From positions 129,952,001 through 130,016,000 of the forward strand of contig OX597817.1 in the NCBI GenBank assembly GCA_951406725.2: a DNA stretch of 64,000 bases, in the 5' to 3' direction. Under the pieces are notes generated by a model. That model ran no database searches. It was given only the letters and a program-made list of their open reading frames with translations, and had not been told where the DNA came from. Origin of the DNA: Octopus vulgaris (taxonomy: Eukaryota). How positions within the stretch are numbered: the first letter of the stretch is position 1; every line of letters starts with the position of its first letter. Positions 1,040 through 55,350 of the stretch are shown one piece after another. The position numbers and the translations under genes are program-made.

Positions 1040-1190
1040 TCTGTTTATTTCCTCATATTCCTTTCTGTTGACGAGCTTAGGCTCGAAAAGTGAAAGACTT
1101 TCTCACTTTCCCGAGCGTCAAACTAATAAATACATCCGCTTGTTTTCACACACCTATTTTCGCCTTTTGTTTTTCAGTAAATTTCAACTA
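1040..1190 (+). mobile_element. Penelope-like element terminal (pLTR) fragment with degenerate minimal hammerhead
   Basis: cttt-CTGTTGA-c-gagc-ttag-gctc-GAAA...aaag at 1061-1096. Homologous to the reverse complement of 46870-47006, which adjoins a GIY-YIG-like C-terminus. Ends at (TA)n. Confidence 0.6.
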
Positions 1191-1289
1191 TATATATATA
1201 TATATATATATATATAGGCAAACATTTATGCACGTATGTATGTATATATAAATATATGTGCGCGCGTGCGTGTGGTACTATATTTACAA

Positions 1290-1670
1290 TACGATGTTTG
1301 CCTCCAAACACATGGTTCCAGTTTTAGTCCCTATTGAGTAGTACCTTGGGTATCTTCTTTTGTAGCCTCGGGCCGACCAAAGTCTTCTGAATGGATTTGG
1401 TAGAGGGAAACTGAAAGAAGCCTGTCATATTGTATCCATATATCTACGTGGATTTTTTTGGTCTGTATTGTCACCTACCAGCGCTTTGACAACAGGTGTC
1501 GGTGTGTTTACGTCCCTGTAACTTAGTGGTTAGGCATAAGAGAGCACAGAATAAGTAACAATCTTAGAAAAATGTACTTTAGTCGAATAATTGAACTGAA
1601 ATTCCTCATGGCGGTGCCCCAGCATGGCCGCAGTTTAATGACTGAAGCAAGTTAAAGATGAAAGATAAAA
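1290..1670 (+). mobile_element. tRNA-derived SINE, family A, diverged copy
   Basis: Colinear with 33703-34130 (ggatttggtagagggaaactgaaagaagcc core; cagcatggccgcagt...tgactgaa tail). Confidence 0.85.
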
Positions 1671-2408
1671 AACATATTCAATATATACCTACATATGTAT
1701 ATTGCATATGGACACAATATGGTTGTTTGTTTGCGCGTACGTATAAGTTTCCGGAGGAAAGCGGCAAGCAGGTAGAATCGCCAGTATAGAAAATCTTGCA
1801 GTATTTCGTCTGGAACTTTACTTTTTGAGGACAAATCCTATCTTCGTCAAGTTTGCTTTTCCTTATTCCGAGTCGATAAGCAAATTAAGTACTGTTTTAA
1901 GTGTAGCAAACAATACAGCTTACGGTTATGCGCGGAATATCAAAATCACGTGACTCAGTATAAGTTAGCAAGTAGAATAAGTATTTTCTTAATTCTTCAA
2001 ATATATATTCGATTTCTTGATCGAATTCTCACGCCGTAACTGCCTCGTCTATAGAGAAGGAGACAGGTAGAAATGGATAGACATGTAGAAATGGATAGAC
2101 TAAAAGACAGACTTAGAGTAAAGCATGAAAACAATTAAATTGTGGAAAAATTAAATGAAATGTTTTTTAAAGATATATCCCTAGTTCTCAAATGCAGGGA
2201 CATTTTCCTTTTTTCTGTTTCTGTGTACATATGTATACACGTATAATGCATACAGGCGCGTATTCATATACATATATATATATACATATATATAGTTGTG
2301 CGTGTGTATATATATATATATATATACACACACACACACACACACACACATATATATATATATATATACACATATTTATCAAAATAAAAACATAATGCAA
2401 AGGATTTA

Positions 2409-2495
2409 GCGGTATATATGTTTCGGGCCTTTATTAGACGGTTTATAACAATGCATAATTGATGTAAATGTGTGTCTATAGCCTTCTTCAGCCGC
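2409..2495 (-). ncRNA. Antisense copy of the hammerhead motif
   Basis: Other arm of the palindrome; the cleavage triplet reads AUA instead of GUA. Confidence 0.65.
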
Positions 2496-2637
2496 GTACA
2501 ATTACTACTTCAGGGACATGTATTACATTATAAGTTTTACGTTGGGGATGCAAATCCTCATAGTCGCGACTATGAGGATTTGCATCCCCAACGTAAAACT
2601 TATAATGTGATACATGTCCCTGAAGTAGTAATTGTAT

Positions 2638-2724
2638 GCGGCTGAAGAAGGCTATAGACGCACATTTACATCAATTATGCATTGTTATAAACCGTCTAAT
2701 AAAGGCCCGAAACATATGTACCGC
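2638..2724 (+). ncRNA. Type I hammerhead ribozyme motif
   Basis: Stem I gcgg/ccgc, core CTGAAGA (2642-2648), long stem II, GAAA (2709-2712), palindromic stem III ACATATGT, GUA cleavage triplet (2718-2720). Confidence 0.75.
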
Positions 2725-2904
2725 TAAATCCTATGCATCATGTTTTTATTTTGATAAATATACTCTATCACCTACACCACTAAATGTCATATACAGGTGC
2801 TTACAATTATCAAGTATTCACCCTGAATTTTTTATACACACACACACATATATATATATATATATATATATATATATATATATATATATATATATATATA
2901 TATA

Positions 2905-3470
2905 ATTCTTTCCATGGCATCTGCATGGCATTAGGGTATTCAGCGGGAATATGTTAACTAATCTATCTTCTTATATTATTTAATTTGAGTACAGACTCAG
3001 GAGCAAAAAGAATATGATTAATAAAACACAGGGATACAACTCGGCTCATCATTTCACACTACTATTTCACAAGCACATTGTTGCTCACACACACCCTCTC
3101 TCTCTTTCTCTCTCTCTCTCTTTCTCACACACACACACACACACACACACACACACACACACACACACACACACACACACACACATATATATATATATAT
3201 ATATATATATATATATATATATAATTCTTTCCATGGCATCTACATGGCATTAGGGTATTCAGCGGGAATATGTTAACTAATCTATCTTCTTATATTATTT
3301 AATTTGAGTACAGACTCAGGAGCAAAAAGAATATGATTAATAAAACACAGGGATACAACTCGGCTCATCATTTCACACTACTATTTCACAAGCACATTGT
3401 TGCTCACACACACCCTCTCTCTCTTTCTCTCTCTCTCTCTCTCTCTCTCTCTTTCTCACACGTACACACA
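2905..3470 (+). repeat. Tandem duplication, period about 319 bp, bounded by microsatellites
   Basis: attctttccatggcatct...cacacaccctctctc starts at 2905 and at 3224; the copies are nearly identical. Confidence 0.95.
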
Positions 3471-52374: not shown

Positions 52375-53110
52375 TCTGCTTGAAATTATCATTCCAAAAC
52401 ATAATGTGATAACAAGTAGATATTATCGATTATCGTAATGTAATAAAAAAAGCCTTCAAAGTTATCATACCCAACGATGTGTGATATCAATATAGTATGT
52501 GATATTACCGTGATAATTATAACGGGCTGAAATTGCTTTGTTTCAAAGTTATCTTCAATTACCATAATGTGGCGACAAGGCCGTCAAATTTAACATTGAT
52601 GATTATATGACAAAATAGCTTCCGGGGCTATTATCGACAGCCATGTATTAATGACGTATAGGTAATCATCGTAACAACAATAATGGTATAAACATACCAT
52701 TGAAAGTTATAAGATAATATAGCGTTCAAAGTTATTATCCACAATCAAGTGATAATAATATGGTAGAAGACTAGACTGGGATAATACAGCATTCCAAAAA
52801 TGTCACCCACACCGATAATGAATATGATATTGCTTTGAAATTTATCATTTGCAATCATAATGGAATATCATAGTTTTTACAGATATCATCATCAACCATC
52901 ATGCCATAACGTAGCTTTCTTAGTTTATCATTTGTAGCTGTTTTAATATCACAATGGACGTTAGGACGACTAAGTCATAAGATTGCCCTCAAAGTTATCA
53001 CCAACCACCATAATGGATGAGATAACACAGCTAGTTAGCAAAGTTATCATCGTCAAGGATAATATAACATACCTTCTAAATTTGTCCTCCACGAACAACT
53101 ATGTGATACG
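52375..53110 (+). repeat. Cryptic degenerate tandem repeat, about 40-45 bp
   Basis: Recurring ttcaaagttatca...cataatgtgata motifs. Confidence 0.7.
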
Positions 53111-53549
53111 AAGTTGAGAATCATAACAACTAGAATGTAATTTCATTATTTTCATGTTATTGACAATTTTTGTCTTCTATAAGCGGATAAATTAATCGCC
53201 TTGTTAATCTTTTCGCAAACAGTACAGATATAAAAAAAAAAAGAAAAAAGAAAAAGAAAACTGTGCTTAATCTTAGCTTTAGCAGCTTAACTGAAACATC
53301 TTTATTTGGATAGGTCGCTAATCTATTTGAGTTATTAAGTTCACTCTCTAATGAACTAAATACATAACCATTCTAGTCTGCAAAATTGGGGCATTTTAAA
53401 ATTAGTGCTTCACTATTACATTGTGGCTAAAATAACTTGGGAAGAGTTCTGAAGACTAGCGCTCTCTCTCTCTCTCTCTCTCTCACACACACACACACAC
53501 ACACGCACACACACACACACACACACACACACACACACACACATACATG

Positions 53550-53950
53550 TATCTTTTGTTTTACTTGTTTCAGGCATTGGACTACGGCCATGCTGGGGCA
53601 CCACTTTGAAGGGCTTAGTCGAACAAATCGACCCCAGTGCATATTTCTTTTCAATCCTGGTACTTATTCTATCGGTCTTTTTTAGTCGAATCGCTACGTT
53701 ACGGGGACGTAAACAAACCAACACTGGCTATCAAGTGATGAAGGTTGGGGACAAATACGAATACAAAGACACGCACACTTAGATATATACATATATGCAT
53801 AAGACGGGTTTCTTTCATTTTCCCTCTATCAAATCTACTCACAAGTCTTTGGTTGGCCCTAACTGTAGTAGAAGGCACTTGCACACTGTGCTACACAGTA
53901 TGGCTGAACCCGGAAATAAACTTCTTACCATGCAGCCATGACTGCACCTA
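53550..53950 (-). mobile_element. SINE family A
   Basis: Reverse complement of family A. Confidence 0.85.
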
Positions 53951-54287
53951 CACACACTCACACACACACACACACGAAATTCGTGTTAAGCGTAGAAGCT
54001 ATGCACGTTACCAGAATTCTCAACACGGGTGCGATAGAACAACACAATCCTAACATAATTTATAGTAGTTGTGTGAATGGATATAGGGCTGACTAGCTTG
54101 TAGTGACGGAGTTATATAATGTATAAACATGAAGTCAAACCAAATAATGATATTTTAAATTCATTTAATTCGTGATTCAGATAACTAAGGAAAGGGAAAA
54201 CAAAACCAAGGTATGACGAGCATTTCAGGTCATTTAGAATATTTAATTAGAGTAAGGTGAATCAAAAAAGAAGTAGAAGTAATTAAA

Positions 54288-54363
54288 GTCTTACAGCTGT
54301 TTCTGTGATATCTCAGGTAATGGGTCAACACCCCCATACATTGGGCATTCCGTCATCGGAAAC
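54288..54363 (-). ncRNA. Type I hammerhead motif (U4C variant)
   Basis: Minus strand: gttt-CCGATGA...GAAACAGCTGTA-agac; palindromic stem III ACAGCTGT. Confidence 0.6.
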
Positions 54364-54482
54364 AAACTGTGTATGCAGGAAAATTCCAAACAGAGAATTC
54401 ACAATATATAGAAGATAGAAGAATAAAGTTCTCAGTTCATCTTGTTCTGAAAGGTATAGATGTTATATATATATATATATAT

Positions 54483-54872
54483 AGTCGCCTCCAGTTCGTA
54501 TTCGAGCATTGAGTTCATTAGTTTCATCCAGTTTCCTTGGCTGATGTTTGGGCCAAAAGTGACTTTGGAGTCCATATCGGTGGTGAAAGAGTCGTGGGCA
54601 GAACTCGCACGGGATGGTCGGTGCAGGTCGAAGATATTGAGAACGCCTCTTTCTTCTCCTACGTTTTGCATCCTCATTCTGTTGTCTGTTCTGTTCGAAT
54701 GAGCTGGTTCTATTGCAGATAACAGTCATCCAGAACGTCTTATCTATGGCAATCTGGTCCCATGAAGATGGCTGGATGTTAGCTTGAGCCAAGGTCCGTT
54801 TGAGCTGGTCTTTAAAATGGAACTTCGGACCTCCTCTGGGTCTTGTTCCGATTGCACGTTCTCCGTCAAAAA
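54483..54872 (-). mobile_element. RTE-BovB-like LINE 3' end with C-terminal C2H2-like finger
   Basis: RPRGGPKFHFKDQLKRTL...SWDQIAIDK..W...CEFCPRLFHHRYGLQSH. Confidence 0.85.
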
Positions 54873-55214
54873 CGTTGCTCTTTCAGAAAATGGAAAAATA
54901 GTTTCACCATTCCATAGCAAAACCGTTGTACTTTGACAATTTTTGATATCTTGGCATCTGAAATAGCTGGAGTTACGATAGTTTGACTAAAAGAACCGGT
55001 TACTGCAAGCAAAAATAAATATTGAAAAAAAACACATTTGGCCAAATTTGGACATACGACAGTTTAACATGATAGCAATGATATGTTTGTGTGTATGTGT
55101 GTGTGTGGAGAGAGAGAGAGAGAGAGAGAGAGAGAGAGAGAGAGAGAGAGAGAGAGAGAGAGATGTATATATGCATATATATATCGCGAAAATATGTTGA
55201 TGGACATTTTCTAT

Positions 55215-55350
55215 ATTTCTGATGAAGAGCTCCGCTCGAAACGTGGAATCCTCTTTCTTTGCTTTCCTTTCCTGAGCGTCCAATAACACTGTACTTATTC
55301 CACGTCCTCGCGTTGTTGTATTTTCTTGCTTGTTCATGTTTGGATTGACT
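55215..55350 (+). mobile_element. PLE terminus with minimal hammerhead
   Basis: attt-CTGATGA-a-gagc(tcc)gctc-GAAA-CGTG-gaat at 55215-55249; downstream gagcgtccaataac resembles the 1061 family; ends in (TA)n. Confidence 0.65.

Follow-up and report, generated by a model that had tools for sequence, protein, structure and literature searches.

The hammerhead-like motifs in a 64,000-nucleotide stretch of Octopus vulgaris DNA (contig OX597817.1; hereafter the window) are very probably the decaying pLTR tails of several octopus families of Penelope-like elements (PLEs), joined by a second motif predicted to be of a permuted kind. The minimal type I hammerheads among them belong to an ordinary, published class. 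What is new is a very abundant family with a U6 core (family A) and a predicted permuted family (family H). The original prediction overlooked both the U6 core and the permuted family; minimal type I hammerheads of PLEs are already in print (PMC4209133). Judging from folds read in published consensus tails, I also consider it fairly probable that Naiads, a PLE clade among the most abundant retroelements of many invertebrates, carry working permuted hammerheads, of type CSG in nematodes and of a new topology in octopus and squid. The features are collected in Table 1.

Table 1. Hammerhead-like motifs and PLE remnants in the window
Feature	C3	Position	Strand	Remarks
Family A copy	1065	1058..1188	+	U6 minimal type I relic; stem III decayed, G17; ends at (TA)n
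Family B copy	2491	2372..2566	-	One arm of 195-bp inverted duplication; stem III palindrome with one change
Family B copy	2642	2567..2761	+	Sole fault-free type I motif; predicted cut after 2720; stem III ACATATGT
Family H partial inverted copy	9173	9137..9262	-	C block only
Family H full copy, predicted permuted hammerhead	9419	9300..9540	+	Stem II strand 9349; predicted cut after 9373; GAAA 9390; runs into (TA)n
Dead Hydra-clade-like PLE remnant		12384..13324	+	RT thumb to endonuclease end; HMM E 1e-5, tblastn E 2e-5
Decayed type I relic	15989	15983..16100	+	GAAA-CGGCCG-TA right half intact; left core CTAATGA; stem II doubtful
Family H 5'-truncated copy	19209	19195..19350	+	C block only; ends at TA-rich repeat
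Family H best copy, predicted permuted hammerhead	19866	19745..19885	+	Stem II strand 19794; predicted cut after 19820; GAAA 19837
Weak candidate	20678	20672..20718	+	Exact core, 4-5 bp stem I; no palindrome or G-C stem II
Second copy of 22405 family		21481..21611	-	Right half only (ACGGCCGT); absent from the original prediction
Decayed type I relic	22405	22322..22411	-	5-bp stem I, damaged core
Minimal type I hammerhead	25269	25263..25308	+	Stem III palindrome with one change
Exact core, stem II and ACGT-C, no stem I	30816	30782..30816	-	
Dead Hydra-clade-like PLE endonuclease C-terminus		32412..32528	-	HMM E 1.5e-5
Naiad PLE 3' untranslated tail		32530..33488	+	Close to published Naiad_Obim
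Family A copy	47002	46895..47036	-	Repeat of very high copy number; U6 at 46999; GAAA restored in the majority
Repeat upstream of family A		47060..47480	-	~100-fold rarer; PLE endonuclease end-like by eye
Decayed type I relic	54359	54286..54365	-	GAAA-CAGCTG-TA right half intact; core CCGATGA; stem II doubtful
Family A sister	55219	55213..55350	+	Canonical A6, G17; ends at (TA)n
Dead Hydra-clade-like PLE N-terminal RT		55765..56038	+	tblastn E 1e-4; reversed-window control best 0.057
Dead C-terminal-endonuclease PLE remnant		63583..63878	-	RT motifs; E 3e-9

Type I hammerhead motifs

About ten hammerhead-like ribozymes had been predicted. All 11 places listed are hammerhead-like, but only five pass a type I descriptor, while one is a homolog of a passing site, four are decayed, and one is weak; the last five fail the descriptor and have no passing homolog. 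The positions given for them were off by a few to ~80 bases; the corrected C3 positions are 1065+, 2491-, 2642+, 15989+, 20678+, 22405-, 25269+, 30816-, 47002-, 54359-, and 55219+. The predicted CTGANGA core is exact in six of them, the other five having a variant (CTGTTGA at 1065, CTGTGGA at 47002, CTAATGA at 15989, CTGAGAG at 22405, and CCGATGA at 54359).

The descriptor was built from features in Cervera and de la Pena 2014 (the core, no or one extra base, G10.1-C11.1, a palindromic stem III, and stems I and II of 3-4 bp), with at most two faults allowed. It was passed by 2491, 2642, 25269, 47002, and 55219, which make four independent sites since 2491 and 2642 are one inverted duplication; 2642 alone among the 11 is free of faults. 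Against these five sites, the mean number passing after local dinucleotide shuffling was 0.08-0.62, and five was reached in 0 of 200 shuffles. At the passing sites, the G10.1-C11.1 pair is present as a PLE minimal type I hammerhead requires. The expected extra base after A9 was found in four of the five, and 25269 can be read with none or one. The CUGANGA and GAAA cores with U16.1 and H17 are exact or have one fault in 2491, 2642, 25269, and 55219. The palindromes named for stem III are present, but their variation between unrelated families does not amount to strict covariation. GAAA-C(4N)G-T palindromes occur four times versus 0.33 expected (a count reached in 0 of 300 shuffles); the ACGT form shows no enrichment (1 versus 4.2 expected). 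Monomer folds of the motifs are unremarkable (z from -1.8 to +1.7). Rfam gave nothing at the gathering score for the window, three local scans returned no hammerhead, and none was among the 150 of 378 matches listed.

The two arms of family B lie on opposite strands, and read-through would form a 191-bp hairpin; no intact same-strand hammerhead pair was found in the window. The 2642 copy has a ~50-nt insertion in loop II. In a cofold prediction, two copies of its motif formed a double hammerhead whose intermolecular stem III was 8 bp long, in line with the proposed dimer-type stem III; this was the only one of five motifs tried that did so. In 15989, 22405, and 54359, the right half and stem I are kept, and the left half or stem II is damaged. 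The motif at 30816 was likely 5'-truncated at the motif itself, and 20678 could not be separated from chance. A candidate at 55504 was dropped as it lies inside a Hydra-like coding sequence, as were 13125, 4407, 49100, and 61103, which have a core and no stems. GAAA-AT-T matches from the satellite at 38828-40848, which push up loosely scored counts, were left out of the ribozyme tally; the inverted repeats at 16630-16859 and 17421-17726 yielded no convincing hammerhead.

The window motifs share with PLE minimal type I hammerheads (PMC4209133, PMC8557442) the same order, the extra base after A9, G10.1-C11.1, a short stem I, the palindromic stem III, the presence of many families per genome, the mostly solo copies, and the (TA)n targets. 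The extra nucleotide, palindrome, solo copies, opposite-strand pairs, and TA targeting are all in print for PLEs, and a Hydra-clade hammerhead of O. bimaculoides is tabulated in PMC8557442 File S2; none of the window's octopus families was found in the supplements searched. They differ from that class in the U6 of family A, the long loop II insertion of family B, and three octopus relics with 8-nt palindromes and long loop II regions.

Probable origin from Penelope-like elements

The predicted PLE origin is supported by PLE remnants in the window, TA junctions, and inverted duplications, and several unrelated hammerhead families are present, as had been proposed. The listed motifs sit at the 3' ends of short repeats leading into (TA)n. 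A (TA)5+ tract lies at most 330 bases downstream in 8 of the 11 sites versus 19% of random positions (p ~2e-4, with a threshold chosen post hoc). The targeting of (TA)n is supported by family A, whose loose contig ends at the 3' side continue directly into (TA)n in each of the four runs. Inverted duplications, a PLE signature (PMC8557442 Fig. 2 legend), were found at 2372-2761, 9137-9455, and 19506-19727.

Four coding remnants and one Naiad tail match the four or five PLE remnants of the original prediction; every reading frame is broken, so they are dead and cannot be the helpers for which they were taken. The coding remnants surfaced only with homolog-built profiles: Pfam searches of 300 of 527 stop-to-stop frames and 12 read-through frames gave no PLE domain, a search with a 60-aa remnant found no homolog, and P0001 was the only PLE among three phmmer matches. 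No descriptor-passing motif lies directly 3' of a profile-confirmed remnant, and none of the listed motifs was seen joined to a PLE reading frame within the window. The remnant at 63583..63878 is Neptune-like by eye and continues to ~62900.

The source elements would have cut their own RNA via the hammerheads, either as dimers or with the element's protein. In an in vitro study of an anole PLE, core mutants did not hinder insertion and the ribozyme needed the protein (PMC11167929). Reverse transcription probably begins close to the 3' end and mostly terminates early, and therefore the 140-250 bases around the ribozyme would be copied ~100 times more often than the coding part. The solo copies, once inserted, would be inert and decaying.

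An abundant family with a U6 core

It was found that 1065 and 47002 are homologs (82% over 119 bp) and that both have U instead of A at core position 6. Family A is common to three coded species, with a copy number of ~10^4-10^5; ~19,000-22,000 contigs per DNA run align to the 651 bases around it, and the summed depth over 46895-47036 is 2-6 million versus ~50 for one contig. GAAA is restored in 97-99% of this depth. There is no A>T row at 46999, and in the run X15 (contigs, whose RNA nature is a guess) A6 stays below 8%, all six A>T places being located elsewhere; in the other three runs, one to three A>T places are hidden from this estimate. Family A adjoins the repeat at 47060..47480, its link to PLEs consisting of a few contig joints and a by-eye likeness; this repeat had no match in Pfam and PLE-homolog profile searches. 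A metagenome scan with the family A motif gave six GC-rich matches, attributed to chance. No A6U or CUGU core was found in the open-access literature listings searched; further core variants, position 6 included, may be given in Lunse et al. 2017 on PLE dimers.

A predicted permuted hammerhead in family H

In both full copies of family H (9300-9435 and 19745-19885), the cleavage, GAAA, and CUGAUGA blocks stand in a non-circular order with five predicted helices. An any-order scan returned family H as the sole strong non-type-I match (0.003 per shuffled window for that order and ~0.013 for all orders). With the core and GAAA held fixed, a four-helix fit occurred in 1 of 20,000 shuffles, the thresholds having been set from the real copy. 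In the alignment, 47 of 52 cells are paired versus 25-48% when slid, with two double-sided changes; the covariation control was not significant for these two full copies (129 of 500 shuffles). Both copies have the S-G-C block order. Stem I is 5 bp and stem III 4 bp in 19866; stem I is 6 bp in 9419, where stem III is broken at one pair and stems II and III are weak. Each full copy contains broken pairs. The sequences flanking stems I and II are brought together by helix V (6-7 bp, one double-sided change). Helix IV could reach across G8/A9, in which case it would block the core.

The S-G-C order of the inverted class, a short linker between stems I and II, and an extra helix joining their flanks are shared with types SGC and CSG (Eckert et al. 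2023, PMC10085705). However, direct pairing of CUGAnGA to stem II is only 2 bp in 19866 (in 9419, inspection by eye allows a bulged pairing); the better stem II partner lies upstream and is not directly joined to CUGAUGA, and therefore family H was not filed as type SGC proper. The non-circular hammerheads of that study come from metatranscriptomes and metagenomes only, CSG from two sequences, whereas the permuted folds here sit in animal retroelement tails. Viral scans with family H and CSG patterns gave no match, and the prokaryote scan gave two loci, taken as chance. The 17-base family H motif is absent from the supplement of Craig et al., and no reading frame in the window is linked to family H.

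Proposed permuted folds in Naiad tails

Membership in Naiads, a clade defined by an N-terminal endonuclease and a C-terminal RT, was established for the 32530-33488 tail only. At 33340-33420, this tail has a dead permuted-hammerhead relic with a deleted cleavage block and the core CTAATGA. Naiads were reported to be without canonical hammerheads and carry the annotations "HHR_core" and "HHR_half_core" (Craig et al. 2021, PMC8557442); common to those annotations and the window are the Naiad tail and core halves at an unusual distance or order. In contrast to that report, the flagged cores can be read by eye as complete or near-complete permuted hammerheads: on such inspection, 8 of 11 published Naiad consensus tails fold in this manner, three nematode ones as complete type-CSG hammerheads with all helices covarying. 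No published link between Naiads and permuted hammerheads was found in the open-access literature listings searched.

Family H and the Naiad tail are predicted to represent a monomeric, pseudoknotted hammerhead with the order stem II strand, cleavage, GAAA, and CUGAUGA, likely derived from a tandem of type-CSG ribozymes. In the topology predicted for family H and for the Naiads of cephalopods, the backbone is interrupted between A9 and stem II, and an additional helix, the fourth of the junction, closes it; PMC10085705 took such a cut not to occur.

Alternative explanations

Might all the motifs be chance matches in AT-rich, repeat-rich DNA? The looser first score gave only modest enrichment (9 versus 3.4 at score 4 and 3 versus 1.25 at score 5, in 40 shuffles), and coincidence may account for 20678 and for parts of 15989 and 54359. 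This is nevertheless highly improbable for the whole set, as it is contradicted by the descriptor, the palindrome counts, the family A repeat data, the any-order scan, and the family H shuffles; a chance origin was ruled out for 2491/2642, 25269, 47002/1065, and 55219. The proposed non-autonomous families are, on these data, indistinguishable from 5'-truncated ends of autonomous elements. Truly non-autonomous elements, either SINE-like or of the dispersed retrozyme kind, which would have 5' ends and transcription of their own and be moved by PLE proteins in trans, are a possible but less likely reading. Family A is covered ~100 times more deeply than the coding-like repeat upstream of it, contigs diverge from the copy in the window at a single point (47034-47037) and share a 5' extension there, and a 2026 preprint derives animal retrozymes from pLTRs. 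However, truncation by itself is enough to yield short 3' pieces (PMC4209133), and the 5' extension, seen for 30 letters, could lead into the reading frame of another PLE subfamily. Animal non-LTR retrozymes (PMC7229834; bioRxiv 10.64898/2026.07.22.740005) are likewise non-coding, hammerhead-bearing, and PLE-related, but they are tandem repeats of 150-450 bp with canonical motifs, while the window copies are solo or inverted and minimal; no head-to-tail array or tandem monomer was found in the window, and rare go-back joints are single contigs.

Family A with its U6 core is probably a weakened or dead ribozyme that would have kept spreading because cleavage is dispensable for insertion. It is less likely that the U6 variant is naturally active, with dimer formation or the PLE protein making up for the change, although the ACGT palindrome, both stems I and II, and the rest of the core are preserved in this family, which three coded species share, and A6C is a slow yet active natural variant (PMC3088659). 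A full mutational scan found low activity for variants altered in the CUGA turn (PMC9901934), A6 is present in 56 of 56 representative PLE motifs (PMC4209133 Fig. S3; that descriptor demanded A6), and insertion in vitro proceeds without cleavage (PMC11167929). Family H, on the other hand, could be a structured PLE tail that retains half a core as a leftover, its five-helix fit arising from freedom of choice. The small number of full copies with the non-significant covariation control would agree with this, as would nested folding, which favours other structures, and the lack of precedent for a break, or for a helix, between A9 and stem II in the literature passages searched. I regard this as unlikely, since identical block order and helices with unrelated letters recur by eye in published octopus and bobtail-squid Naiad tails, the nematode Naiads show their complete type-CSG folds, and the chance fit is as rare as given above. 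A permuted hammerhead remains the preferred reading of family H.

Significance

In O. vulgaris, PLEs of 190 families make up 6.83% of the genome (PMC13282606 supplement). With the U6 family, it can be tested directly whether a PLE needs ribozyme cleavage in order to spread. If the proposal for Naiads is true, their tails would hold the first non-circular RNA permutations in genomes of known animals, cutting as monomers, and the cephalopod form would show that the CUGAUGA block is separable from stem II. If the permuted folds cleave, the rare CSG/SGC class could be placed in genomes and in a biological setting, and natural variants would become available in their thousands for covariation and structure work. 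The claim that Naiads thrive without hammerheads would then need revision, and the ribozyme would be near-universal in PLE tails.

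Results

Predicted permuted hammerheads

Comparison of the window with itself revealed a family (family H) that has CTGATGA and lacks the downstream GAAA, at 9173(-), 9419(+), 19209(+), and 19866(+). In its two full copies (C3 at 9419 and 19866), GAAA lies 29 bases 5′ of the core, and the U-H site and the stem I partner lie still further upstream. When the window was scanned with the blocks allowed in any order, two type I matches and one S-G-C match came up; the latter, at 19866, has an expectation of 0.003 in each shuffled window. In a five-helix model (IV, II, V, III, I), 47 of 52 cells are paired, versus 25–48% when slid, and there are two double-sided changes between the copies. 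The shuffle control for covariation, on two sequences, was not significant (129/500). When the core and GAAA were fixed, an equally good fit arose in 1 of 20,000 shuffles, with thresholds set from the real copy. [quoted passage not shown]

The segment 32530–33488(+) closely resembles, by eye, the published 3′ tail of Naiad_Obim, a member of the Naiad clade of PLEs, over about 900 bases; a search confirmed an exact 19-base match. An Octopus species is therefore very likely the host. The window copy has lost the cleavage block. In the octopus Naiad tail, CTGTTGA lies directly 5′ of the stem II strand and is perhaps what is left of another core.

Eleven Naiad entries in the supplement text of Craig et al. 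2021 (PMC8557442) had their 3′ ends compared by eye. A permuted-hammerhead fold was recognized in eight; it was not found by eye in these ends of Omin, Adux, and Skow-1. Three nematode entries (Naiad-2_Nbra, Naiad-3_Nbra, and the entry preceding these) end with complete C-S-G hammerheads. Their stem I sequences are GCTTA/TAAGC, TCTTA/TAAGA, and CCTTA/TAAGG, with a stem II of 4–5 bp, a stem III of 6–11 bp, and C17, while a 9–12 bp helix differing in sequence among all three links the flanks of stems I and II. The block order of family H recurs, in unrelated letters, in Naiad_Obim (II GACACC/GGTGTC, III ATGGT/ACCAT, I CTGCCC/GGGCAG, V CGGAT/ATCCG), Naiad_Ovul, and Naiad_Esco (III TACTGT/ACAGTG, I TTGTTT/AAACAA, V CCATGA/TCATGG, IV TTAAGG/CCTTAA). 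In two ostracod entries the blocks run S...G-C; stem I has 7 bp, stem III is long, and stem II is doubtful.

Minimal type I motifs

The original prediction listed hammerhead-like sites, named here by the position of C3. All 11 were parsed for hammerhead parts, and six have an exact CTGANGA. A type I descriptor derived from published features of PLE minimal hammerheads matched five places in the whole window, every one among the 11, versus 0.08–0.62 expected, and none of 200 shuffles reached five. Without the G-C requirement, there were 18 matches versus 7.0 expected. A loose score gave only weak enrichment over 40 shuffles at rising thresholds (9 versus 3.4, 3 versus 1.25, and 1 versus 0.58 expected). 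The original observation was confirmed in part. Only 2642 is free of faults. Site 1065 is a homolog of 47002, 20678 is a weak candidate, 30816 has no stem I, and 15989, 22405, and 54359 are incomplete, retaining good right halves. Rfam searches gave no hammerhead among the rows listed or in three local scans, which is unsurprising for motifs of minimal size.

Four 8-base palindromes that begin with C and follow GAA occur in the window versus 0.33 expected; that at 21564 is an overlooked second copy of the 22405 family. The proposed nearness to TA microsatellites was borne out, with (TA)n within 330 bases 3′ of 8 of the 11 sites (background 19%). The proposed pairing of palindromic stems III in dimers is predicted for 2642, two copies of which fold together as a double hammerhead joined by an intermolecular stem III of 8 bp, but not for the other four of the five motifs tried. 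Together, 2491 and 2642 form one inverted duplication of 195 bp, each being one arm; they cannot pair as a dimer within a single transcript.

A family with U6

Both window copies of family A, 1065(+) and 47002(-), have U6. When four public contig sets were aligned to 46830–47480, the summed depth at 46895–47036 was 2–6 million versus about 50 for one contig. This ratio would correspond to 46,000–120,000 copies, the summed depth itself not being a copy number. GAAA is restored in 97–99% of this depth, H17 is A in 24–64%, and the 3′ loose ends continue into (TA)n. No change at core position 6 was found among the rows listed for the four sets. All six A>T places of run X15 were assigned elsewhere, so that canonical A6 is below 8% in that run. 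The sister element 55219(+) has A6; its stem II is identical, and its stem I differs by a double-sided change (A-U versus C-G).

All 56 representatives in Cervera and de la Pena (PMC4209133) carry A at position 6, A6C is a slow natural variant (PMC3088659), and activity fell with changes in the CUGA turn in a full mutational scan (PMC9901934). Family A is probably a weak or dead ribozyme which went on spreading. This agrees with the anole PLE, whose insertion in vitro was not blocked by ribozyme core mutants (PMC11167929).

Setting and coding remnants

The window is AT-rich animal DNA with abundant microsatellites and mariner and LINE remnants. A LINE reverse transcriptase frame at 40800–42338 (RVT_1, E 1.8e-12) is entered directly from the satellite. 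The dispersed repeat is presumably SINE-like; one copy starts immediately after the 25269 element. One inverted duplication (16630–16859) has CTGTGGA/CTATGGA-like left cores, the right half being absent. Parts of 46830–49400 occur in five coded organisms.

Profiles built from PLE proteins detected four PLE coding remnants, and the reversed window, used as a control, had no comparable match. Their suggested role as helpers was not upheld: all four are broken; they are evidence of past autonomous families, not of helpers at this locus. The Hydra-like endonuclease end adjoins the Naiad tail in opposite orientation, perhaps through nested insertion or through capture.

Repeats and element remnants in the window
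Feature	Coordinates	Strand	Remarks
Family H	9300-9540, 19195-19350, 19480-20010		four core-block copies, two full
Family A tail fragment	24936-24978		ribozyme part absent
30816 family tail fragment	15173-15303		ribozyme part absent
PLE coding remnant	63583-63878	-	profile E 3e-9
Hydra-like PLE piece	12384-13324	+	profile
Hydra-like PLE piece, endonuclease end	32412-32528	-	profile
Hydra-like PLE piece	55765-56038	+	profile
Mariner transposase remnants	8852-9235, 25979-27009		HTH_48, Transposase_1
C-terminal non-LTR retrotransposon remnants	5200-5950, 54463-54882, 60900-61500		zinc-knuckle or restriction-like endonuclease features, by eye
AT-rich satellite	38828-40848		2 kb, 11/12/34-bp units
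18-bp-unit array	28115-29063		open frame, repeated KHHL-like hexapeptides
Dispersed 370-420 bp repeat	1290-1669, 16386-16597, 25414-25819, 33700-34125, 43116-43523, 53543-53915		n=6
Further inverted duplications, 210-320 bp	16630-16859; 17421-17726 (copy at 17123-17262); 44459-44669		

Discussion

The data show the motifs, repeats, junctions, and PLE remnants themselves. Cervera and de la Pena 2014 (PMC4209133) described PLE hammerheads that have the extra base and a palindromic stem III, occur as solo copies and as opposite-strand pairs, and cleave weakly as dimers. Craig et al. 2021 (PMC8557442) reported (TA)n targeting and tabulated a Hydra-1_oBim hammerhead. The listed motifs are therefore new members of a published class, and the reading of the locus as hosting ribozyme-bearing PLE families is partly supported, apart from the helper role. 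PLEs make up 6.83% of O. vulgaris, and ribozymes are unmentioned in the accessible part of that report (Bonar et al. 2026, PMC13282606). In tandem transcripts made from source elements, the type I motifs would cleave when dimerized or when aided by the protein of the element; solo copies would be inert.

In the accessible text of Craig et al. 2021, Naiads are described as being without canonical hammerheads, with "core" and "half-core" cases flagged. A literature search of papers outside subscription found none linking Naiads with permuted hammerheads. Eckert et al. 2023 (PMC10085705) validated the non-circular types SGC and CSG, from environmental sequence only, and assumed that CUGAnGA remains joined to stem II. 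The cephalopod order may derive from a tandem of CSG units, which PLE tails form, if only the end of the first unit and the start of the following one persist. The permuted motifs are predicted to have a stem III of 4–11 bp and a built-in helix between stems I and II, so that monomer cleavage is expected, probably with a cut close to where the RNA of the element ends on its 3′ side.

What is added here is the U6 family and, more importantly, the predicted permuted hammerheads; the earlier interpretation was largely known. I somewhat favor the view that Naiad-type PLEs carry working non-circularly permuted hammerheads that cut as monomers, of the CSG type in nematodes and of a new topology in octopus and squid.
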